Source: Bacilli bacterium
Lineage (GTDB): Bacteria > Bacillota_I > Bacilli_A > RFN20 > CAG-826
DNA length: 64,000 nt
Assembly: GCA_045222195.1 (NCBI GenBank)
Contig: JBGUXN010000029.1
Location: forward strand, 742 to 64,741
Direction: 5' to 3'
The translations under genes were made by a program, and so were the position numbers. Each line of letters opens with the position of its first letter. The first letter of the stretch is position 1. This document shows, one piece after another, positions 31,240 through 42,752 of the stretch. Below the pieces are notes generated by a model. That model made no database searches and was not told the origin of the DNA. It worked only from the letters and a program-made list of their open reading frames with translations.

Positions 31240-32154
31240 TTAGAAAGTTAAATCTTTAGCGATGTCCCACACTCTAGAAGCAACGTATTGAGCACCTTCT
31301 TTTGTGAAGTGGACGTTATCGTTATTTGGTCTTAGATATTTAGAGGCAAAATCCTCTGTGGCTTCGAATTCTTCACGAAGATCTAAGACTTCAAAACCAT
31401 ATTCGTCCGCTAAATCGCGTTGGATTGGATTAACATAATCTCTAATCTCATCATTAGGAATACCAAATTGGTTTGGTGTCACTACTGGTGGAGAGACCAT
31501 CATAATGAATCTAGCATTTGGGAATTGTTCAACATAGGAATCAAGAAGAATACGATATTCATCTTCAAATTGATCTTTGGCTTTTTCCCAACCAGTGGCA
31601 TCGTTTGTGCCTAACATAATAGCGAAGATATCTGGGGCAAGTTTAACTGATTTTTGATACACGTCCTGCTTAATATATCGCATTTCAGGATCATCCCAAG
31701 AACCACCATAACCGGTAACAGAGATGCCATTAACACCACAATTTTCAACCGCGTATTTATCGCTAACGTATTGGCTTAAATATGTTGGATAAGATTCATT
31801 AGCCCAGTAATGACCAGCGGTTAAAGAGTCACCACAACAGGCGATATGATACTTTTCTTTAACGAAAAATTCATACTCTAAAGTAACGCCTTCACAAGTG
31901 ATTGTGGCTTTTTTATCATCTAACCCTAAAGTATGACTAACTTCGAGTTGAAATTCGACCTTTTGTGTGTGGCCACATTTAGAACATTTCTTGCTCACTT
32001 CTAAACCAGTGGGATCAAAGCTATCACCGACGATATAAGTTCTTTTGTCTGAATTTCTGCTGATAAAATAAGAATATTCGTGGTCACATTTAGAACCACA
32101 ACCCGCTAATGCGGACATTAAGATAGGTAAAAGTAAGAGGAATCTAGTTTTCAT
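31240..32154 (-). CDS. SGNH/GDSL-family esterase lipoprotein with an N-terminal Cys-rich module
   Basis: ATG 32154 lies in TAATATG, one nt after the upstream stop. Lipobox MSALAG-C. The GDS block is IACCGDSLTAG. Other motifs: MLGTNDA and a C-terminal DNVHFT (DxxH). The N-terminal module has CDHEY...CSKCGH. Confidence 0.8.
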   Translation of the reverse strand: MKTRFLLLLPILMSALAGCGSKCDHEYSYFISRNSDKRTYIVGDSFDPTGLEVSKKCSKCGHTQKVEFQLEVSHTLGLDDKKATITCEGVTLEYEFFVKEKYHIACCGDSLTAGHYWANESYPTYLSQYVSDKYAVENCGVNGISVTGYGGSWDDPEMRYIKQDVYQKSVKLAPDIFAIMLGTNDATGWEKAKDQFEDEYRILLDSYVEQFPNARFIMMVSPPVVTPNQFGIPNDEIRDYVNPIQRDLADEYGFEVLDLREEFEATEDFASKYLRPNNDNVHFTKEGAQYVASRVWDIAKDLTF

Positions 32155-32155
32155 A

Positions 32156-33238
32156 TTAATCAATTGCTAAGAATGTATAGCTGGTCTTGCTATAGAATTC
32201 TTCTCCTGGTCTAAGAATTGGATTTTCGAAATTATCATGGTTAATCGCATCAGGCATCATCTGACTTTCTAAACAAATGTTGCCGCTACCATCTTTATAA
32301 AGTTGTAATCCTGGTCTATCTGTATGGACCAAAACGGCTAACTTAGATGTGTTACCAGTTAATGTGGCGACATGACGGAATCCTTCGCCGTTTAAGACAT
32401 AGTTATCATCATAACTCTTCGATTTATCGAAGGCTTTCTTTTCTCGATAATCAAATTGTGTGCCTGCGACAGGCGAAATATCACCTGTTGGGATTTGATT
32501 GCTCAACGGGGTGTAATTATCTGCGTTAATCATTAAATCAACGTTATCATAAGATCTATTTCCATTGATATCGATGAATAGGTGATTAGTAGGATTACAT
32601 AAAGTTGCTTTATCTGTAATAGCGCTATATTCAATCTTTAATTCACCTTCGCTAGATAAAGTATATTTAACTGTCATATCCATGTTACCTGGATAGCCGT
32701 TTTCTCCATCATTAGAATGGATTGAGTAAGTAATTGTATCAGCGGTTTGACTAACTTTAGTCCAATCTTTGGTGGCGAAAGGACCACGCCAAGAGTTCAT
32801 GCCGCTACCGCTTCCACCATGTAATGAGTTCTGACCATCGTTTTTACTGACGCTGTATGTTGTACCATCAATTTTAAATGTGCCGCCCGCAATACGATTA
32901 GCGCATCTACCGACAACAAAGCCGTCTTTAGCGACTTGCTTTCCGTTCCAAGTAATTCTATCAATGCTCGCACCTGTTGCTTTAAATTTCACGGATAAAC
33001 CACTATCAGTGTAAAGCTCATTCTCTTTCATTGGATGAGCTGGATCACTTGATGGTTCTGGTTCGCTTGATTCTTCTTTTGAGGATGAGACGATATCGTC
33101 AGAGGATACTTCTACTTGAGAAGTAGCACTTGGCTCTTCGCTGCTTTTTTCACTAATTGGTTGACTGCTTGAGGAACCACAAGAGGATAAAGCAGTTATC
33201 AAAGATAATAAAATAAGTGTACTAAAGATCTTTTTCAT
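32156..33238 (-). CDS. galM: Aldose 1-epimerase (galactose mutarotase family) exported as a lipoprotein
   Basis: ATG 33238 (RBS AGGTGA). Lipobox ITALSS-C plus a Ser/Glu-rich linker. Mutarotase motifs: GRCANRIAGGTFKIDGTTY, NSLHGG, PTNHLFIDI, DDNYVL, CLESQMMPDA. Confidence 0.85.
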   Translation of the reverse strand: MKKIFSTLILLSLITALSSCGSSSSQPISEKSSEEPSATSQVEVSSDDIVSSSKEESSEPEPSSDPAHPMKENELYTDSGLSVKFKATGASIDRITWNGKQVAKDGFVVGRCANRIAGGTFKIDGTTYSVSKNDGQNSLHGGSGSGMNSWRGPFATKDWTKVSQTADTITYSIHSNDGENGYPGNMDMTVKYTLSSEGELKIEYSAITDKATLCNPTNHLFIDINGNRSYDNVDLMINADNYTPLSNQIPTGDISPVAGTQFDYREKKAFDKSKSYDDNYVLNGEGFRHVATLTGNTSKLAVLVHTDRPGLQLYKDGSGNICLESQMMPDAINHDNFENPILRPGEEFYSKTSYTFLAID

Positions 33239-33321
33239 ATGTTTCACCTGCTCTTATAGTGTGGCACGTTCACGCTTTTTTGTATATGTCTTTTGTGTGA
33301 AAAACAAAAGATAATTGTTTT

Positions 33322-34192: not shown

Positions 34193-34222
34193 TAAAAAAG
34201 CCCCTCGTTTAACGAAGGGCTC
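34193..34222 (-). terminator. Terminator ending the sipW/amylase operon
   Basis: Minus strand GAGCCCTTCG-ttaaa-CGAGGGGCT followed by TTTTTT. Confidence 0.7.
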
Positions 34223-34236
34223 AAACTTGTTATTTA

Positions 34237-35178
34237 TTAGGCAAGTTGGAAATAGATTTGGTCTTCACCGTATTTAAGCTTGATGTAGATGGATTCAACA
34301 TTGAAGTCTTGTAAGACGGTGTATGTATGAGTGGAATAGTTATGAGAAATATAAGCTTTCCAGTTCGTGGATTCAGAATTACCACCGAATGACCATGGAT
34401 CGATATCAACTGTCCAACCAGCATTATTTTCAAAGTCATAGAGTTGGAAGACTTGGTCTTTGGCAAAACTTCTATGATTGATCAAGTGTTGTTGGAAACC
34501 GTTATCATCATTTGTTCTAACCGCGGCCATATAAGATTCATCAGAGAACTTAAAGCCAAAACCTGATGTTGGTAAAGCACCAGTACTTGATGGGGTGTAT
34601 TCGCCTGGAGTTGGAGGGACAACTTCACCGCCACCGCCATGGTTACCACCGCCTTGGCCACCACCTTTACCGCCAGTAAATGAGGCATAAAGGATTTTAT
34701 TTTGATAGCCAGGAGCTTTTAAGTATTCAGTGAGCTTGCCATCATTGTTATAAGCAACCCAACACACAAAGTGTGAACCTTCAACAGAGGAAGTGACTTC
34801 GTCATTTGGTAATAAGTCACCGACTTTTGCACTGAATTCCACAGTGTGTTCTAAGAACATTGATTCAATCTTAGTGTTAACTGGATTACCTTTATATAAG
34901 CCATATTCACCAAAGACTAAATAGACTTTGACTTCTGTGCCCGCTGGTAATTCATCGCTTGGAATGACAGGATCACTGCTTGGTTGAGGAGCGACACTAG
35001 AACTTGGCTCAACATTGCTACTTGGAGTGACTTCACCACTACTTGGTGTCACTTCTGAACTTTGCTCAGCATCAGAAGAAGATTTCTTACCTGGTTTACC
35101 TTGACCGTTATATTTCACACAGCCACTAATTGAAGTAAGGATGAGAGGGATTAAAACGAGTAAAACTTTCTTTTTCAT
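34237..35178 (-). CDS. Lipoprotein with an S/P linker, Flg_new-like domain, poly-Gly tract and an unknown C-terminal beta domain
   Basis: ATG 35178 (RBS AGGAGG 8 nt upstream). Lipobox LTSISG-C. Gly-rich tract GGKGGGQGGGNHGGGGE. The last about 110 aa are aromatic-rich. Confidence 0.7.
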   Translation of the reverse strand: MKKKVLLVLIPLILTSISGCVKYNGQGKPGKKSSSDAEQSSEVTPSSGEVTPSSNVEPSSSVAPQPSSDPVIPSDELPAGTEVKVYLVFGEYGLYKGNPVNTKIESMFLEHTVEFSAKVGDLLPNDEVTSSVEGSHFVCWVAYNNDGKLTEYLKAPGYQNKILYASFTGGKGGGQGGGNHGGGGEVVPPTPGEYTPSSTGALPTSGFGFKFSDESYMAAVRTNDDNGFQQHLINHRSFAKDQVFQLYDFENNAGWTVDIDPWSFGGNSESTNWKAYISHNYSTHTYTVLQDFNVESIYIKLKYGEDQIYFQLA

Positions 35179-35190
35179 ATTCACGCCCTC

Positions 35191-37767
35191 CTATTTCTTG
35201 AATACCGATACGGACCATTTTACCGCACCGATATCGCCGCCAGCATTACTTGGCGCACCACCCATGGTTTTGACATTAGAGTAGCCAGAACCTGGATTCA
35301 TTAAATAACTACCAGTACCAATACCAACGTTAATGTAAATCTTAAGCGATTCATTGTTACTGCCGTAGACATCTAAGACTAAGACTGTGCCACCACTGGA
35401 ATTATCAAAGTTGAGCTTAGCGCCCTTTGGATAAAGTTTCTTAATTGCGATTAAGTCTTTATACCAGTTATACATGGAGTTAGGGTCAGCTTTTTGAGTT
35501 TCAGCGTCTGCTAAGGTCTTATTGTAGCTATCTAATTCAAATTTATAAGCACCAGACTTATAGTCTGCTCTAATTGATGTATCTTTCCATAAGAATGGTT
35601 GACGATACCAGATATCTTCGCAGTTTTCTGAGCCATACATACTAACGTGTTGATCAGTATTAGAGGACATACCGAGTTCATCACCATAATAGATCCAAGA
35701 GACACCTGGATTTAATAAAGTGACAGCAGCATGAATCTTGGCTTTATTCACTTGATCACCTTGGCCAGTGACTTTGTTTAAAGCGGTTGTGCCCGCTAAG
35801 GTACCACTACCATTGACTTGGTTAATAGCACGCATAACGTCATGGTTGGAAGTGAAGGCACCATCGATGAAGTCTGGTCTAGAACCACCCATAATGCTAT
35901 ATGGATTCTTACCATCATCGACCAAGACGTTATTGCTTGTGGAGAATGTATCAAATGTTTCTGCTGCTTGCTTTGTAGCGAAGTGAGCAGGTGTACCGCC
36001 ATCTGTATATAAGAAGGCAGGAATATGATAGTAAGTTGAGAAACTGAACTGTGAATCAAGAGCTTGATAGTAAGAAGCAGTACGTGTGCCCCAACCATCG
36101 AAGTTTTCACCCACTAAGAAGCAATTTGGATAATCGGCTTTGACACCATGAGCGAATTCTTTCCACCACATGATGTTCTTTGTTAAGTTAGAGGAATAGT
36201 CAAAGCCTTTAGTAACATAGATACCCTTTTCATCATCGTAGGACTCTTTACTACCAACGTCTTGAACGATAATATCGCCGTTTTGATAGCATTCATCTCT
36301 CATGAAGATGTGCTTGACTGCGTCAAGACGGAAGCCATCTAAACCAAAGCTCATCCAGTATTTAGCCATATCGATGACTAATTTTCTTGTTGAAGCGTTG
36401 AGATAATTAATTTCAGGCATACCACTACCGAATTTACCGTAGTAATAGTAATGAGATTCACCATCTCTATACCATGATGGGTTAGAGCTTTCAGCATCTT
36501 CTTTAACGGTGATCTTTTTATAACTGTTTGTGGATGGATCATATTTTTCAATGATGTCACTTTCAAACTTCCAGTTATAAATATCTCTCCAGTTAATGTC
36601 TGTATCTTGTTTAGCCCATTGAGAATTGGAGAACCAAACATTACCTTTGGATGTATGGTTAAGGACTAAGTCCATGAGGACTTTCATGCCACTTTCGTGG
36701 GCTTTGTATAATAATTCACGATAATCATCGACAGTACCAAATCTCTTATCTACTGCGTAGTAATCGGAAATATCATAACCGTGATAAGAATCGGATTTTT
36801 GGATTGGTGTTAACCATAAGACTTGGACACCTAAATCCGCTAAATATGGTAAAGCATCAATGATACCTCTAATATCACCAATACCATCGCCGTTACTATC
36901 TCTAAAGGAAGCGACAAAGATTTGATAGCCAGCACCTAATGATTTAAATGAATCAGAAGTAGAACTAACGCCTAAGGCATTGGAATATTGCGCATCGACA
37001 TCACTTCTATAATTACCAGTGGTATCTTCATCAATTGGATTGGTTTTGGCTTGTGGGACACCACTACCAGCGTAATAGGCATAGTCATATAAAGCACCAG
37101 TAGAAACGAAGACGTGGATGGCTTTACCACCGGTCACATCTCTCCAGTTCTTGGCTTCACTAATATCATCTAAGTATGTTTCTCTACCACCATCGGAAAC
37201 CCAGTTAGTAGCACCGCTCATTGAGCTTTGTTGTGGAAGTAAGAAACCGATTTCTTCCATACCTTCAAATGTGGTTGGAGTACCGGTTTTACCACCCTTT
37301 AAATTAGCAGCATATAAGTCAACATCAGCGATTGCGCCATAATCATCAACATACGTTGAGGTGCCTTCTTTACCAACTTCCGCAGCGGTCATCCAGTGAT
37401 TGCTCATTGGAGAAAGAGTTAATTTATCGCTAACTTTTGGATTAGCAGAGAATGCCCATAGGGAACCTTCTAAATCTTGTGGGGAATGTTGCCATAACCA
37501 AAGGCAGTAGTTTTCATAACCGCCTTTATCACCTCTATTGTAATGGAAATATAAGTGATTTGGTTGGCTCCAGGAATTTAACCAGGCATCATATTCATCA
37601 ACATCATCAACTGGTGTAATGCTTGATTCACCTTGACCCTGAGAATCACTAGTTTGGCTTGTATCACCACTTGGGGCACCGCTTTTTTCACTAGTGCTAC
37701 CATTGTGCATAACACAGCCCGTCACTAAGAGGGGCAACAAAAGGAAAATGACTGTTCTTTTTTTCAT
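35191..37767 (-). CDS. GH13 alpha-amylase-family enzyme, lipoprotein, with an N-terminal CBM41/PUD-like module
   Basis: ATG 37767 (MKKRTVIFLLLPLLVTG-C). N-terminal HLYFHYNRGDKGGYENYCLWLWQ. GH13 regions: GDGIGDIRG, I VLMDLVLNHTS, II GLDGFRLDAVKHI, III FLVGENFD, IV FTSNHDV. Confidence 0.9.
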   Translation of the reverse strand: MKKRTVIFLLLPLLVTGCVMHNGSTSEKSGAPSGDTSQTSDSQGQGESSITPVDDVDEYDAWLNSWSQPNHLYFHYNRGDKGGYENYCLWLWQHSPQDLEGSLWAFSANPKVSDKLTLSPMSNHWMTAAEVGKEGTSTYVDDYGAIADVDLYAANLKGGKTGTPTTFEGMEEIGFLLPQQSSMSGATNWVSDGGRETYLDDISEAKNWRDVTGGKAIHVFVSTGALYDYAYYAGSGVPQAKTNPIDEDTTGNYRSDVDAQYSNALGVSSTSDSFKSLGAGYQIFVASFRDSNGDGIGDIRGIIDALPYLADLGVQVLWLTPIQKSDSYHGYDISDYYAVDKRFGTVDDYRELLYKAHESGMKVLMDLVLNHTSKGNVWFSNSQWAKQDTDINWRDIYNWKFESDIIEKYDPSTNSYKKITVKEDAESSNPSWYRDGESHYYYYGKFGSGMPEINYLNASTRKLVIDMAKYWMSFGLDGFRLDAVKHIFMRDECYQNGDIIVQDVGSKESYDDEKGIYVTKGFDYSSNLTKNIMWWKEFAHGVKADYPNCFLVGENFDGWGTRTASYYQALDSQFSFSTYYHIPAFLYTDGGTPAHFATKQAAETFDTFSTSNNVLVDDGKNPYSIMGGSRPDFIDGAFTSNHDVMRAINQVNGSGTLAGTTALNKVTGQGDQVNKAKIHAAVTLLNPGVSWIYYGDELGMSSNTDQHVSMYGSENCEDIWYRQPFLWKDTSIRADYKSGAYKFELDSYNKTLADAETQKADPNSMYNWYKDLIAIKKLYPKGAKLNFDNSSGGTVLVLDVYGSNNESLKIYINVGIGTGSYLMNPGSGYSNVKTMGGAPSNAGGDIGAVKWSVSVFKK

Positions 37768-37872
37768 ATCAAAAACTTCCTTTATCTGTATAGATTCATT
37801 ATACAACCAAATAGAAAAGATTTAATAATAATCTTAATTATTACTAAAAACTAACGATTTATTTAATTATGA

Positions 37873-39900
37873 CTACGCTTGTGCAACGTATCCGTCAATA
37901 AAGATTTCTCTAATGTGTTCTAATGTATGTTCTGAGATGCCAAAAGACATCAAATGATTCTTCATCTTATCAGCGAAATTATCACCGCTTAAAGCTTCTG
38001 TTTTAGAGATCCACTGTGGAAATTCAGCATCGTTTTCAGTCAGTTTAACAGTTCTACCTTGTGTGAACTGTGTCCAGACATAGTCTCTAGTCATATCTTG
38101 AATGCTAACACCCAATAAGGATTCTAAGAAGAATGAAGCAATGCCAGTACGGTCCGCACCATAGGTACAGTGTAATAAGGCTGGGTTAATATCACAGTTT
38201 GCGATTGTATTAAAAATAGTCACATATTGATTAGCAATATTTGTGCCACTATAAGTGCCACCTTCCCAGCGTACTGGTTCTGAGCCAGAAGGAATTGAGG
38301 CTTTAACTAAAGTTACTGGCCATGCAGCAGTATTAGCAGGAGATTGACTTGGCACATTAGCGCTATCTCTTAAATCGATATCAACTTTAATACCTAATTC
38401 TTTAATCGCGGCTAAACCTTTGCCCTCGTTATCAAGTTCGCTTCTTGTAGAAGAATAACCGGATTGATTTAATTGAGCGCATCTAAAGTAGAGGCCTTGT
38501 TTAATCTTTTGACCAGGCACTAAATATGTATTCCAACCACCGATATCACGGAAGTTTAAAACGTTAGGAACTTTAACAACACGTGGCGCTAAAGAAGTAG
38601 ATGTAGATGTTCTAATTTCAGCGGAAGCTAAACCATCTTCACTAGTTGCGGCACGATAGTAATATGTAGTGTTTAATTTAGCGTTCCATAATTCGTAGTA
38701 TGTGACGGTGGCTGTATTAATTGGAGCACTATTAAGAGCGCTTTCACTTTCTGCTACTTGAACGTAATATGTACCTCTACCAGCAAGGTCATCAAATCTC
38801 AATTTCATGGCTGAAGGAGCGGATAAATCGCTACCATCTGCATATGTTTTATAGTTTTCAATGTGATTATCATGGAGGAATTGATATTGATTTAAGTTAT
38901 GGAAATCATTATCAGGTACTTCATTCACACTTAATGGATCAACTGGATTCCATGTGGCTAAGTTACTTGACCAATTATCTTGCCAGGAACTCCAAGAGTT
39001 CATGCATAAAAGTGTGGAATCTTTAGAATAGTTTGTGCCATCTGCCCAAGAAGAACCTGAGAATGAGAAATCAGCGGATTGATTGCCCCACGTAAATGCA
39101 GATGCAGTAGATGAATATCTAGAGAATTTGAAATTGTTATAGTCCGCTGGGATATAGGTATATAAGGCATCGCTAGAAGAAACACCCATATGAATGGAGG
39201 TATTGTTATCTCCTTGCCAAGCATAAATACCAAAACTACTACCAGTACCATCCCAGTCAGCAGCCCAATAGCTATTTGGTTTGAAACCAATCTTTCTTTG
39301 AACAATAGCAGCGCCTTCATTTTCAATGAATTTATAAATACCCGAAGCGGTATGAAGGCTTCTAGAATCATTCCAAGAAGCACTGACATCTAAGACACCA
39401 TCAAGGCCTAAATAACGATAACCAATCAAAGTTTGTCCGATAGTATTTGTTTCTAAAACAACATCAGTATTTACTTCGTAATAGTTGGAATTAACATAGA
39501 CTTTTTTAGATGATGATTTAAAGATTGGATAGTATGTGGCGTCACTAGAAATGGTTAATTCCGCTAACTGCTCGTTTGTATAGTCAATCGCATAGCTTTC
39601 TGATGTCGGAGCGGAAGTTTTCCAACCTTGGAAATCATAGCCCTCCAAACTTAATGCAGGAATATCACCCGAATCAATAGACTCACCATTATCTACTTGA
39701 ACCACAACAGGTGTTTGCCAGCCACTATCGTATTCGGTATAGAATGTGACATTATTTCTTAATGGACTGACACGAATTTGAACGCCAAAAGAATTAGCGT
39801 TATCAGTAACACCGTACGCAGCAAATACACTACCTGCTGATAAACCAGCGGCTAGTAAAGCAACAAGGCTGAAAATAACGACTTTGCTACGCTTGCTCAT
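37873..39900 (-). CDS. Exported multidomain protein: SipW-cognate-type signal peptide, Flg_new repeat, CBM25/26-like module, Fn3-like module, C-terminal CX5R phosphatase (Y_phosphatase3 type)
   Basis: The track ORF starts at 39975. I prefer ATG 39900 (RBS AGAGGAGA, 14-nt overlap with the sipW-like gene). N-terminus MSKRSKVVIFSLVALLAAGLSAGSVFAAYGVTDNANSF. Other motifs: GYDFQGW...YYPIF and FGIYAWQGDNN...YNNFKFSR. Phosphatase motifs: NFRDIGGW, GLYFRC, IDLRD, and the P-loop LLHCTYGADRTG (38149-38172). Confidence 0.8.
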   Translation of the reverse strand: MSKRSKVVIFSLVALLAAGLSAGSVFAAYGVTDNANSFGVQIRVSPLRNNVTFYTEYDSGWQTPVVVQVDNGESIDSGDIPALSLEGYDFQGWKTSAPTSESYAIDYTNEQLAELTISSDATYYPIFKSSSKKVYVNSNYYEVNTDVVLETNTIGQTLIGYRYLGLDGVLDVSASWNDSRSLHTASGIYKFIENEGAAIVQRKIGFKPNSYWAADWDGTGSSFGIYAWQGDNNTSIHMGVSSSDALYTYIPADYNNFKFSRYSSTASAFTWGNQSADFSFSGSSWADGTNYSKDSTLLCMNSWSSWQDNWSSNLATWNPVDPLSVNEVPDNDFHNLNQYQFLHDNHIENYKTYADGSDLSAPSAMKLRFDDLAGRGTYYVQVAESESALNSAPINTATVTYYELWNAKLNTTYYYRAATSEDGLASAEIRTSTSTSLAPRVVKVPNVLNFRDIGGWNTYLVPGQKIKQGLYFRCAQLNQSGYSSTRSELDNEGKGLAAIKELGIKVDIDLRDSANVPSQSPANTAAWPVTLVKASIPSGSEPVRWEGGTYSGTNIANQYVTIFNTIANCDINPALLHCTYGADRTGIASFFLESLLGVSIQDMTRDYVWTQFTQGRTVKLTENDAEFPQWISKTEALSGDNFADKMKNHLMSFGISEHTLEHIREIFIDGYVAQA
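39787..39900 (-). other. SipW-cognate (TasA/camelysin-type) signal peptide
   Basis: MSKRSKVVIFSLVALLAAGLSAGSVFAAYGVTDNANSF. The G-x-x-F-A-A-Y-x-V-T-D core resembles the GGT(F/W)A-x-F-x-D core of Bacillus TasA/TapA/CalY signals. Confidence 0.6.
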
Positions 39901-40933
39901 TATTCGTTGTCTCCTCTTGCTTTGGTTCTTCTGGCTTTTCTTCTGGTTGTTCTGGGTCTTTTTTCTTTTTATCAAATAAGAGCCAATAAGCTACTGGAAT
40001 TAGGCATAAGCCTAAAATCATAATTGTACCCCATGGTGAAGATAAGAAACGGATTGGATAACCAAGTTTAGGAACTACATTTACAACTTTGGCTTTTAAG
40101 TCTTTTCTTTGATACCAACCATCGTCGGTATTAGCTTTATCACCACGAATCAAATATCTTTCATCGATATTGAACATGTATTTGTTATCTTCGTCAGCTT
40201 GTTTAACAATATCGTTATTAACTAAGATCTCGTTTTTACCACCACTGAGTTTGACATATTCAAAATAGGTGTTGTATTCGTAATTCTTTTTAGTAATGGA
40301 GAACTTGGCGGGGCTCATTGATTCCCTATGATATGTAATAACGTTTTTATAGTACCCGTTAGCTTCTTTTGAACTAGAAATAGTTGGTTCAATAGATGCA
40401 CTAGCGACGTTGAAGTAATATTCATCCACATCAAATTCATTTTGGGTATAGGCAACGATTTCTACATCGGTGAAAATGTAAGAATTTTCTAAATAGACTT
40501 GAGAAGATGGAGAAACAAACTTAAATGTTGTAACATCACCAATCTTTTCTTCTTGTAAATCAGTTAAATCAAATGTATCGCCACGACGATCAATGTCGAC
40601 GATACGGTGCATATCGGTGCCGATACTTGGATTATCAAAGATAACAACGTCTAAAACATTCAATTTTGTTTTATCAGTGATTCTTTTTGATACCACAAAA
40701 TCAAATGCTTGTATTTGCTTAGTGTCTTTTAAGAATTCTTCGTACTTTTCATTCTTCTTTGACATCGAATCAGTCAAAACGACATCATAACGAGTGTTGA
40801 AGACATAGAAAGGTGTTTTAGTAAACTTATAAATAAGTTCAACGGCAACGAAAACAAATAATCCGCCGACTAAAACATAACCAATAATTCTACCGACCTT
40901 TTTAGCGCGTTTACCGGCTTTTTCTTTTTTCAT
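39887..40933 (-). CDS. sipW: Signal peptidase I, ER/archaeal (SipW) type, with a large insertion between the His box and the GD box
   Basis: 348 aa. N-terminal TM IIGYVLVGGLFVFVAVELI. Boxes in order: VVLTDS56MSK, LDVVIFDN, DMH109RIVDI, RGD265KANTDDGW, VVPKLGYPIRFLSSPWG. A C-terminal TM TIMILGLCLIPVAYWLLF is followed by a K/E/P-rich tail. Confidence 0.8.
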   Translation of the reverse strand: MKKEKAGKRAKKVGRIIGYVLVGGLFVFVAVELIYKFTKTPFYVFNTRYDVVLTDSMSKKNEKYEEFLKDTKQIQAFDFVVSKRITDKTKLNVLDVVIFDNPSIGTDMHRIVDIDRRGDTFDLTDLQEEKIGDVTTFKFVSPSSQVYLENSYIFTDVEIVAYTQNEFDVDEYYFNVASASIEPTISSSKEANGYYKNVITYHRESMSPAKFSITKKNYEYNTYFEYVKLSGGKNEILVNNDIVKQADEDNKYMFNIDERYLIRGDKANTDDGWYQRKDLKAKVVNVVPKLGYPIRFLSSPWGTIMILGLCLIPVAYWLLFDKKKKDPEQPEEKPEEPKQEETTNNEQA

Positions 40934-40945
40934 AACTAAGGGAAA

Positions 40946-40969
40946 GAGGGGCAGGAGACCCTACCCCTC
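40946..40969 (-). promoter_or_regulatory. GC-rich 10-bp hairpin between the 386-aa gene and the sipW-like gene (possible attenuator or mRNA-stability element)
   Basis: Minus strand GAGGGGTAGG-gtct-CCTGCCCCTC followed by TTTCCCTT. It sits 17 nt after the upstream stop and 12 nt before the sipW ATG, which has no SD. Confidence 0.5.
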
Positions 40970-40986
40970 ATATTTAAATAAACTAA

Positions 40987-42147
40987 TTAAGCGTGGGCTT
41001 TGCAGAAAATATGGATGCCGTTATTGAGTGTTGGGTTGAAGAAGAAATCGTAGTGATTTGCTTCACCGATAACAATGTTCGCGCAACCATTTTCGTGACT
41101 GCTTTCACCATACCAAACGTTGTCTGTGCTAACGACTTTAAGTTCTGTGCCAGCAGCAATTTCAACGTTTTCAATCTTGAATGTGTAATCGAAATCGTTT
41201 TCTTCGTCACCATTTCTATCGAGACTACCTTCGGAGGCAACGAGTTTATTGGCTTCGACCATCATCCATTCGTTGAATGTACCAACGAGATAGAAGTCAA
41301 CTTCTGCATCGAGATCTGGAGCAGCCACCCATGCATCATGGTAGTATGGGTTGCTTGGATCAATTGTTAAGTCTGTTGTTTGAGAACCATTGTTGTTGGA
41401 GAAAATGATCATATCGAAGTTAACGTCTAAAGCGATGGAATAGATGTCATCTTTGACTTGTGTCATTTCAGCACCTGGGAATTCGGCGTTGCTAGCCATT
41501 GTGGAAGAATTCCAAGCATAGGCATAAACGTGAGACCAGCTCATTTTGTTCCAGAAATAATAAGTTCTTGAAGTAACTTCTTCAATACCTGAACCCTTAT
41601 TCCAGTCAACTGTTAATGTAACAACGTCGTTCTTAATCTGGTTATAGACTGCTGGATTTAAAGTGCCGTCTAACGCGACATAGAAATAAACCATTTTTTC
41701 TACACCACTGTTAACAACGATGTCTTTTGCCACTGTGTAATTAGCAGAACCATCTGGGACTGTTAATAATGGATCACCTGTTTTTGTGTTGTTGTCATAA
41801 ACATTAACAGATAAGTAGTTGATAAGTTTTTCTTCACCTGTGGCAGTTGTTTCAAGCTTAACAAGTAAGCTACCTGTGAAAGCAGAAGCATCAGATGTTG
41901 TGGCTCTTAAACCAAGGGCATATGGGCCTTTTTCTTCACCAACTGATAAGCTTTCAATGTTGATTAAGCCTTTTGTACCCCAATCGAGAGTAACGGACTT
42001 ATCATCGCCAATTTCAACTGCTTCTGGAGTAATTGTCACGGAGAATGGATCAGCATTATCTGTGACAGCCCAAGCTGCGAATGTTCCACCGACGAGTAAA
42101 GCGGCTGCGACGACGGAACCTAAGAAAAATAGAGATTTTCCTTTCAT
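40987..42147 (-). CDS. Exported protein: SipW-cognate-type signal peptide, about 160-aa possible TasA/camelysin-like domain, CBM25/26-like starch-binding module, second CBM20/48-like module
   Basis: 386 aa with RBS AGGAAGGT. N-terminus MKGKSLFFLGSVVAAALLVGGTFAAWAVTDNADPF. aa 193-275: YYFWNKMSWSHVYAYAWNS...EFPGAEMT...DMIIFSNNNGSQTTDL. aa 283-386: FYLVGTFNEW...AGTELKVVSTDNVWYG. Confidence 0.75.
   Translation of the reverse strand: MKGKSLFFLGSVVAAALLVGGTFAAWAVTDNADPFSVTITPEAVEIGDDKSVTLDWGTKGLINIESLSVGEEKGPYALGLRATTSDASAFTGSLLVKLETTATGEEKLINYLSVNVYDNNTKTGDPLLTVPDGSANYTVAKDIVVNSGVEKMVYFYVALDGTLNPAVYNQIKNDVVTLTVDWNKGSGIEEVTSRTYYFWNKMSWSHVYAYAWNSSTMASNAEFPGAEMTQVKDDIYSIALDVNFDMIIFSNNNGSQTTDLTIDPSNPYYHDAWVAAPDLDAEVDFYLVGTFNEWMMVEANKLVASEGSLDRNGDEENDFDYTFKIENVEIAAGTELKVVSTDNVWYGESSHENGCANIVIGEANHYDFFFNPTLNNGIHIFCKAHA
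42043..42147 (-). other. SipW-cognate (TasA/camelysin-type) signal peptide
   Basis: MKGKSLFFLGSVVAAALLVGGTFAAWAVTDNADPF. Confidence 0.6.
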
Positions 42148-42296
42148 AGTTTTACCTTCCTTTTTAAAGAAAATTACCTAGTACACAAAAGAATGTAGTT
42201 ATTACTAAACTTCAGTGTATCTAGAGGATATTTAGCAATATCCATTTGCAATATAATTATATATTGTTTTATAAAACGTTAATAAATATTTTAGTA

Positions 42297-42326
42297 AATT
42301 TAAAAAGACTGCCATTTGACAGTCTT
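42297..42326 (-). terminator. Terminator ending the pullulanase/ABC operon
   Basis: Minus strand AAGACTG-tcaaatgg-CAGTCTT followed by TTTAAATTT. Confidence 0.55.
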
Positions 42327-42347
42327 TATAAGTGATGAATGTCAGGA

Positions 42348-42752
42348 TTAGCCTTTCACTACTTCTTCGTCTTCTTTTTCTTTAGCTTTCTCGGCGTGTT
42401 TTAAGATTAAACCAAACGCGACGAGAGTGGCCATACTTAAGACGTAAGCCGGAATAGCTGTCCCCTTGTATTTAGCGGAGTTCGCATCTGTTTCGTTAAT
42501 GAAATAGGTGAGAACTTCATCCCAATACACCGCTGCGTCATGATATTTGCTTGATTCATCAGTTAAAGCGTTCTCATCGGCTTTAATGAGTTCGGTGTAT
42601 TTGTTATCCGCCATTAGTTGGTTAGAGATGGAGGCTTGGTATTTAGCTTTTTCAAATTGAGAAATAGTAAATAGACCCAAAGCTAAAACAGCACAGCCAC
42701 CTAATATGGCGGTATAAGCCATTAATCTTTTAGTCTTTTTCTGTAATGCCAT
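42348..42752 (-). CDS. Small 2-TM membrane protein, function unknown, last gene of the ABC operon
   Basis: 134 aa with RBS AAGGAGGT. TM helices are at aa 12-32 and 103-123, with a helical external loop between them. Confidence 0.6.
   Translation of the reverse strand: MALQKKTKRLMAYTAILGGCAVLALGLFTISQFEKAKYQASISNQLMADNKYTELIKADENALTDESSKYHDAAVYWDEVLTYFINETDANSAKYKGTAIPAYVLSMATLVAFGLILKHAEKAKEKEDEEVVKG

Follow-up and report, generated by a model that had tools for sequence, protein, structure and literature searches.

A divergent SipW-class signal peptidase and two predicted cognate substrates with starch-binding and phosphatase modules in a starch locus of an uncultured gut Bacilli bacterium

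The analysis concerned three consecutive minus-strand open reading frames (ORFs) in a 64-kb window (64,000 nucleotides, positions 742 to 64,741 of contig JBGUXN010000029.1) from the Bacilli bacterium assembly GCA_045222195.1. Gene A (40987..42147, 386 aa) encodes a protein presumed to be a major fibre subunit, gene B (39887..40933, 348 aa) a divergent S26B (SipW-class) signal peptidase with a beta-sandwich insert, and gene C (37873..39900, 675 aa, counted from the ATG giving MSKRSKVV...) a strand-only accessory or cargo protein. The ORFs of this triad agreed exactly with the positions in the initial annotation of the window, and Pfam confirmed the starch-locus setting described there, i.e., a GH13 amylase gene directly following the triad and, nearby, a pullulanase-type enzyme and a maltodextrin ABC importer. 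B is very probably a dedicated SipW-class peptidase with A and C as its two cognate substrates, as judged from conserved residues, alignments and cleavage-site patterns. The interpretation that we favour, by a modest measure, is that the cassette represents a dedicated SipW-type pathway that would build a starch-adhesive fibre by donor-strand exchange and equip it with enzyme cargo. All genes and protein features of the window given below lie on its minus strand.

The boxes of a SipW-class enzyme that had been read in gene B were all found, i.e., the Ser box DVVLTDS56MS (40760..40786), VVIFDN, the His box DMH109RIV (40598..40615) and the Asp box RGD265KANTDD271G (40118..40147), along with a transmembrane (TM) helix near each terminus (aa 14-37, 40823..40894, within a helix that spans aa 2-38 in the structural model; and aa 300-321, 39971..40036, a model helix matched in the alignment by the C-terminal portion of the SipW profile). 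S56, H109, R263, D265 and D271 were invariant across 23 B homologues down to 33% identity, as were M57 and R110 next to the Ser and His. In a joint alignment with canonical bacterial and archaeal enzymes, S56-M57 fell on the SGSM box, H109-R110 on the THR box (THRI or THRV) and D265 on the GDAN box. The general base position of B is occupied by His, in an H-R box, unlike the Lys of P-type S26A enzymes.

Standard models miss B because a beta-sandwich of about 140 aa, predicted to be extracytoplasmic (aa 121-259, 40157..40573), splits the His and Asp boxes. Thus, the full-length protein matched nothing in Pfam and nothing relevant among PDB sequences, and its only match in NCBIfam was a partial one to the SipW model NF046067 (E 6.6e-4, 19.3 bits), whereas B from which the insert had been deleted in silico matched the same model with an E-value of 8.7e-8 (32 bits). 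Homologues treated in the same way matched it down to E 1.3e-10 over nearly the full model length. Natural paralogues of 199-240 aa without the insert, in which the catalytic residues are kept, occur in related loci; an insert-less paralogue of 239 aa matched the SipW model with E 2.3e-14 and the archaeal-type model TIGR02228 with E 4e-11. The expected match to an archaeal-type signal peptidase model was also obtained for three of four insert-removed homologues (about 1e-7) but not for the window protein, which gave no TIGR02228 match with its insert removed. A tblastn search of plasmids with an insert-less paralogue returned a haloarchaeal gene annotated as signal peptidase I, and a clostridial SipW-like gene of the canonical kind.

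The AlphaFold model of B (pLDDT 83) consists of a helix at each end and two beta domains. One of these matched E. coli LepB (1t7d, 1kn9, 1b12, 3iiq) and S. aureus SpsB (4wvj) in Foldseek at probabilities of 0.98-1.0 (best E 2.8e-4), a fold match that does not discriminate S26A from S26B enzymes. The other, at approximately residues 121-259 between the His and Asp boxes, matched beta-sandwiches of the CBM6, CBM35 and GH146 types. A derivation of this insert from the acceptor domain of A or from its carbohydrate-binding module (CBM) was dropped at the sequence level (hhalign probabilities of 0.2% or less). The B family comprises 53 clusters at 90% identity, all metagenomic, and its sole named member is labelled 'hypothetical protein [Bacilli bacterium]'. 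On this evidence B is a divergent member of the S26B class and not a SipW equivalog, and the alignment to S26B/SipW peptidases with Ser56 and His109 in catalytic positions, on which the earlier proposal depended, was borne out by the joint alignment and by the matches obtained after insert removal.

Both neighbours of B carry the substrate motifs quoted for them in the initial annotation, GGTFAAWAVTDNADPF and GSVFAAYGVTDNANSF. In A, the signal peptide (aa 1-24, MKGK...LLVGGTFA, 42076..42147) has its predicted cleavage site after Ala24 and is followed by a predicted mature N-terminus that is a candidate donor strand (aa 25-39, AWAVTDNADPFSVTI, 42031..42075); in C, the signal peptide (aa 1-27, ...AGSVFA) and the shared strand (aa 28-42, AYGVTDNANSFGVQI) together occupy 39775..39900. 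The sites read G-G-T-F-A/A-W in A and G-S-V-F-A/A-Y in C, compared with V-G-G-G-T-W-A/A-F in TasA, and the predicted mature chains begin with AWAVTDNADPF... and AYGVTDNANSF..., respectively. In the signal region of A, G20 and A24 are invariant and T22 and F23 nearly so, and the end of this signal could be aligned with a canonical signal from Acetoanaerobium noterae (locus L014). The pattern of a TasA-type signal peptide, with aromatic P2 and P2' residues around Ala-Ala, was therefore reproduced in both proteins. At the TasA site these aromatic residues hinder the P-type peptidase LepB, whereas the endoplasmic reticulum (ER)-type peptidase SipW cleaves (PMC10269814).

When all six frames of the 64 kb were scanned with the regular expression [FWY]-A-A-[FWY]..V-T-D-N-A, the pattern was found twice, solely in A and C and in each case right behind the hydrophobic core of the signal peptide, in agreement with the claim that no other exported protein of the window has the motif. 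Motif-bearing neighbours were present beside every homologous peptidase examined. No signal-peptide model was matched by either N-terminus in an NCBIfam scan at E-values up to 10, for which neither the presence of TIGR04088 in the library nor the scorability of so short a model was confirmed.

The likeness between A and C is confined to this N-terminal stretch. Thus, in a BLASTP comparison of the first 191 aa of A with C, only residues 6-39 of A and 9-42 of C aligned (17/34 identical, 50%, E 2e-6), and a profile of the N-terminal domain of A, termed A4, matched C at profile positions 6-45 only and the C-type proteins of all loci at positions 1 to about 50 only. Among 37 A homologues, the mean frequency of the most common residue was 0.95 for the five residues before the cleavage site and 0.84 for the fifteen after it; the folded domains scored 0.49-0.52 (the jelly roll alone 0.49). 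Constraint of this degree on mature residues +1 to +15 is, from these alignments, not what is expected of an ordinary signal peptide. Likeness between TapA and TasA is likewise confined to the N-terminal strand (PMC9674648).

The model of A (pLDDT 82; 108 homologues) is disordered over aa 1-42 and continues with a beta-sandwich (aa 43-184, 41596..42021), CBM26 (aa 197-261, 41365..41559) and a third beta domain (aa 285-384, 40996..41295). As the initial annotation had proposed for Foldseek, the N-terminal jelly roll matched TasA and an archaeal bundling pilin, i.e., the TasA fibre 8aur_A (probability 0.99, E 0.013, TM 0.37) and AbpA 7ueg_A (probability 0.98, E 0.0067), both of which are donor-strand-exchange filaments of one superfamily (PMC9674648, PMC9245690). 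The other high-probability fold matches of A in the PDB were Sas6 (0.98) and CBM26 structures, both to its C-terminal part, and there were none besides; CsuA/B and FimG were matched weakly. CBM26 was recognised by Pfam (PF16738, E 6.6e-13, 49.1 bits against a cutoff of 28.1) and by Foldseek (2c3h, probability 1.0). The C-terminal domain, which has no Pfam match, is modelled with confidence and is included in a match to Sas6 of about 220 columns; judged from the model, it is probably a second carbohydrate-binding module. When the jelly roll was compared by hhalign with two canonical camelysin-like proteins, the signal peptide aligned and nothing else did. The jelly-roll profile was found in 178 representative clusters among 1.84 billion proteins. 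In one protein, P0411 (5271 aa), seven stretches match the central part of this profile; another, P0415 (185 aa), has the exact signal and AAWAVTD start on an unrelated C-terminal domain that ends like a type IX secretion tail, and may be a chimeric assembly.

Behind its strand, C carries a Flg_new (Listeria-Bacteroides) repeat (aa 51-106, 39583..39750), weak in the window (E 0.004-0.008) and reaching significance in the C-type proteins from L001, L007 and L008, then a middle region (aa 107-320, 38941..39582) in which aa 223-280 may be CBM26-like, and finally a phosphatase module (aa 321-675, 37876..38940). No jelly-roll signal was found in C by profile comparison. The CX5R phosphatase that had been assigned to this protein was confirmed by a Y_phosphatase3 match above cutoff (PF13350, aa 443-618, E 1.9e-24, 87.4 bits against 22.2) together with the HCX5R loop HCTYGADRTG (aa 577-586, 38143..38172). 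About 18 clusters of homologues have the full 675-aa architecture, and more than 100 other relatives share only the C-terminal portion of about 355 aa (60-76% identity), the sampled members starting with a lipoprotein signal. This portion, an Fn3-like stretch plus Y_phosphatase3, is a common surface lipoprotein with varied N-terminal domains (P0182, P0195, P0199, P0246). Because its relatives bear a lipoprotein signal, the module is normally lipid-anchored at the surface, and its fusion to a strand protein suggests that the strand is an equivalent means of surface attachment, i.e., that one attachment device has been swapped for another. That the phosphatase acts on phosphorylated starch or grain phytate is a guess.

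Eleven further loci from metagenome assemblies of gut and rumen Bacilli, including one Coprobacillus metagenome-assembled genome, were surveyed. All eleven have an A-type gene ahead of a B homologue, and conservation of the triad in relatives was evident from the 10/10 complete loci, the window included, in which a strand-only C-type gene, usually opening with Flg_new repeats, completed the three. The window and loci L002, L007, L010 and L012 have starch-active genes (GH13, GH77 or CBM20) close to the triad. In addition to proteins with both strand and jelly roll, a search with the A4 profile returned jelly-roll proteins without the N-terminal strand that were either membrane-anchored or fused to Big_2, i.e., lipoproteins (P0407, P0414), helix-anchored proteins with a degenerate motif (P0378, P0404, P0392) and the Big_2 fusions; P0399 and P0403 were further strand-less proteins. 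P0414 is encoded in triad locus L011 (3036-3722) and P0378 in triad locus L012 (6001-6540). From its sequence features, a membrane-fixed groove without a strand plausibly fits the base anchor expected of a donor-strand fibre.

In several loci a long peptidase coexists with a short one, and additional subunits are present. A long peptidase and a second paralogue were noted in L004 (8001-9470 and 10911-11630), L007 (5974-7041 and 8481-9107), L008 (812-1480 and 5971-6990) and L011 (3825-4853 and 6297-6644), the second being short and insert-less in L004, L007 and L008 and cut by the contig end in L011. The long peptidase comes after an ...AAW.VTD... subunit in L007 and L008, and the short one precedes a C-type protein with a divergent motif in L004, L007 and L008 (FANFFVQDDA, FASFLVRDDA and ADYVVKDNA). 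These arrangements hint at two peptidase-substrate specificities.

A G+C-rich hairpin separates genes A and B on the minus strand (40946..40969, from a scan for terminator-like sites; -20.4 kcal/mol, z -2.9). A hairpin between the A-type and peptidase genes was present in 7/7 loci tested (-19 to -32 kcal/mol), the structure being kept while the sequences are unrelated; its counterparts lie at L002:7958-7990, L003:7949-7970, L004:7964-7989, L007:5938-5959, L009:5898-5932 and L010:5920-5953. It is probably an attenuator, a partial terminator or a transcript stabiliser that sets an excess of subunit over accessory protein. Gene A has a good ribosome-binding site, and that of gene C sits within the end of gene B, which overlaps gene C by 14 nt; the called gene ends likewise overlap in L001-L003.

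In the proposed pathway, Sec would export A and C by way of the special signal peptide, and the membrane peptidase B, whose Ser56-His109-Asp265 site is placed by homology on the outer face, would cut both after T/V-F-A, presumably behind Ala24 of A and Ala27 of C, thereby freeing the conserved N-terminal strand. Donor-strand exchange would then join the A subunits, the strand of each completing the jelly roll of its neighbour, and each subunit of the resulting fibre would show CBM26 and the second beta module, i.e., the fibre would be a multivalent adhesin for starch granules. C would take the free groove at one fibre end, like TapA or AbpB, and place Flg_new and the HCX5R phosphatase there; it would be limited to the end groove because the strand is present and the acceptor domain absent. 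In related loci, the opposite end could plausibly be held by the lipid- or helix-anchored strand-less jelly-roll proteins, and the hairpin after gene A would probably keep subunit mRNA above the mRNA for peptidase and tip. Tethered to starch by the fibre, the cell would harvest it with the GH13 amylase, the pullulanase-type enzyme and the maltodextrin importer. We put donor-strand polymerisation of A at about even and suggest the role of C as end-piece tentatively. Polymerisation gains support from the fold matches to TasA and AbpA, from the conservation of the mature N-terminus and from the anchored strand-less jelly-roll proteins of related loci. A broader reading, possible if somewhat doubtful, is that of a TasA-like nutrient-capture pilus with a CBM-bearing shaft, an anchored strand-less base and a strand-only cap with interchangeable enzymes, the insert of B doubling as an assembly platform.

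Several results weigh against a fibre-forming, starch-directed SipW pathway. The Peptidase_M73/TasA model that had been expected on aa 27-185 of A gave no match; no Pfam hit to PF12389 was obtained at E 0.1 or below with the whole protein. A comparison of the jelly-roll profile with PDB sequences returned Cag10 at chance level only and no TasA, and the Foldseek matches are modest in E-value (0.007-0.013) and low in TM score (0.34-0.37), because the query was a three-domain model. Curated hidden Markov model cutoffs were never reached by the peptidases (for SipW, 19-32 bits where 190 are required; for TIGR02228, 31-43 bits in relatives where 51.85 are required); since the E-values are significant yet below cutoff, they indicate homology without equivalog status. 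By hhalign, the peptidase insert has no profile similarity to the jelly roll, and the search with the A4 profile found no strand-less anchor subunit in the window. Of the starch-binding modules in the claimed cargo, CBM26 was confirmed in A, whereas in C it is a weak signal (hhalign E 0.0087 at low probability). Conservation of the triad next to GH13 genes stood only in part: starch genes accompany it in the window and several loci, but L001 has none within 8 kb, so that the GH13 link is frequent and not universal, and a strict tie was rejected on this counterexample.

Much of the evidence would be the same if the peptidase were dedicated and its substrates were simply a starch-binding protein and a phosphatase, monomeric and either released or held at the surface, with no fibre. 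B would still be needed for both, since aromatic residues at P2 and P2' hinder the housekeeping peptidase, and the peptidase and cleavage-site evidence fits equally well. Not all proteins of the camelysin family are known to polymerise, the window has no anchor gene and the TasA fold similarity is modest. We nevertheless regard this explanation, the main alternative, as less likely than the fibre, since it leaves four observations unexplained: that the 15 residues past the cleavage site are the best-conserved part of A, that the otherwise unrelated C shares exactly that stretch, that membrane-anchored copies of the domain lacking the strand occur in related operons, and that a hairpin is conserved after the subunit gene.

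The remaining alternatives concern the peptidase and the signal segment themselves. An inactive or repurposed B, i.e., an S26-fold chaperone or assembly platform acting through its insert while the general signal peptidase cleaves A and C, would account for a large insert near the active site and for very low HMM scores, and archaeal bundling pili need no dedicated peptidase (PMC9245690); against this, the Ser, His and both Asp residues are invariant to 33% identity and are kept in the insert-less paralogues too, as is typical of active enzymes, and P-type peptidases cleave a TasA-type site poorly, which makes an inactive B very improbable. A third reading, that A and C are simply tethered to the membrane by a shared N-terminal segment that stays uncleaved as a signal-anchor or serves as a sorting tag for some other surface attachment, is likewise very improbable. 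Lipoproteins tethered to the membrane do make up most of the other exported proteins of the locus, and P0378 and P0404 have a degenerate motif behind an apparently uncleaved helix, but the hydrophobic stretch of A and C is short and ends in Gly-Gly before an invariant small-residue site, the gene always occurs together with one for a signal peptidase and the polar VTDNADPF strand is not membrane-like.

Compared with known systems, the triad resembles Bacillus subtilis tapA-sipW-tasA most obviously in its three-gene content of subunit, ER-type peptidase with two terminal helices and accessory protein, and also in the accessory N-terminus that mimics the donor strand of the subunit, the T-aromatic-A/A-aromatic cleavage site and the jelly-roll subunit. 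In contrast with tapA-sipW-tasA, the gene order is subunit, peptidase and accessory, the subunit is invisible to PF12389 and bears CBM26 and a further beta module, Flg_new and a phosphatase take the place of the TapA domain in the accessory protein, the peptidase has an insert of about 140 aa, and the genes lie in a starch locus of an uncultured gut bacterium and are not under biofilm control. With AbpA and AbpB of Pyrobaculum calidifontis (7UEG), the triad has in common the jelly-roll fold (0.98) and donor-strand exchange, which forms the filament there and is proposed here; AbpB, which has been proposed to supply the first strand and distal adhesin domains (PMC9245690), has the role suggested here for C. 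The archaeal operon differs in that it has no dedicated peptidase and its subunits have no carbohydrate-binding modules, and it serves hyperthermophiles for bundling and for forming biofilms.

The widespread clusters of SipW and camelysin-like genes, represented here by Acetoanaerobium noterae (L014) and a haloarchaeal plasmid (L013), similarly combine an S26B peptidase of 190-230 aa, which aligns with B over all boxes, with small secreted proteins whose signals end in ...TMAWFTDSE or ...TTAYFSDS. Unlike those of the triad, however, these substrates are single-domain proteins of about 190-240 aa without CBMs or enzymes, the peptidases lack the insert and the motif is A-[WY]-F-[ST]-D-S as opposed to A-A-W-A-V-T-D-N-A. 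In L013 (2824-4831, Natronorubrum aibiense plasmid), the gene next after signal peptidase I encodes a protein with ...IALFSDAST, and in L014 (3477-6346) two or more camelysin-like genes come after one for a SipW-like protein of 191 aa; the A. noterae record is labelled a 2.6-Mb plasmid and has four annotated features. The proposed placement of several starch-binding modules at the surface near amylases and a maltodextrin importer recalls the Ruminococcus bromii amylosome, with Sas6, and the Bacteroides Sus system, and the CBM region of A matches Sas6 by fold (0.98); those systems employ cohesin-dockerin or lipid anchoring, whereas assembly of the triad products would rely on a TasA-like domain that polymerises by itself and on a dedicated peptidase. 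Chaperone-usher pili (Fim, Csu) share with the proposed fibre an anchor, a shaft joined by donor strands and a special end subunit, but they belong to an unrelated lineage, and a chaperone, an usher and an outer membrane are all missing here. C is the reverse of FimH, having a strand without a groove.

Upstream of gene A, a weak promoter-like site (42288..42315, minus strand, 9/12 consensus matches) lies in a 200-nt intergenic gap and overlaps a terminator-like hairpin of the preceding gene (42304-42327). Between the gene for a MalK-type ATPase and the triad promoter region, positions 42348-42752 encode a protein of 134 aa that matched no family and has a membrane helix at either end; the MalK-type ABC importer and a CBM48 pullulanase-type gene were identified upstream by Pfam. 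Downstream of gene C lie genes for a GH13 alpha-amylase-family lipoprotein (35191..37806, Pfam E 6e-75) and a 315-aa lipoprotein without a family match in Pfam or NCBIfam (34237..35184), followed by the likely operon terminator (34198..34222, minus strand), an 11-bp hairpin and a T run. The scan for terminator-like sites found none between gene C and the GH13 gene, which is probably co-transcribed with the triad. The 315-aa lipoprotein has a Gly-rich linker and a C-terminal beta-rich region. In L007 (661-1614 and 1630-4299), a GH13 gene and a gene for an unannotated 317-aa lipoprotein adjoin the triad, with sizes and order as in the window; the lipoprotein of about 315 aa may be an unrecognised starch-binding protein. 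Genes for an aldose 1-epimerase (32156-33247) and a GDSL-type hydrolase (31240-32163) both encode lipoprotein signals (LSSCGS and LAGCGS), from which the two enzymes appear to act outside the cell, an unusual location for a mutarotase.

The pathway had been put forward as an undescribed system. Its general design, a SipW-type peptidase with cognate substrates, is already known, and what is undescribed is the starch-binding, enzyme-bearing version, which was absent from the literature searched: full-text searches found no paper that ties TasA or SipW to CBM26, starch or rumen bacteria. The new elements are the fusion of a fibre domain to starch-binding modules, the enzyme cargo on the accessory protein, the large peptidase insert and the starch-locus setting. 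TasA-type machinery, known from the Bacillus biofilm matrix and from archaeal bundling pili, thus appears to have been rebuilt for substrate capture in uncultured rumen and gut Bacilli. If so, it would constitute a third bacterial architecture for attachment to starch, beside Sus-like lipoprotein complexes and the cohesin-dockerin amylosome, and would indicate that donor-strand fibres of monoderms can carry cargo. It would also offer a base-shaft-tip genetic system for the study of fibre nucleation and anchoring, which are unclear for TasA and TapA, and would define a peptidase subfamily and a subunit family, of the cluster numbers given above, that current annotation pipelines overlook. Were the nutrient-capture pilus to prove correct, the locus would encode an amylosome without cohesins or dockerins, in which the TasA scaffold serves as a modular display system.

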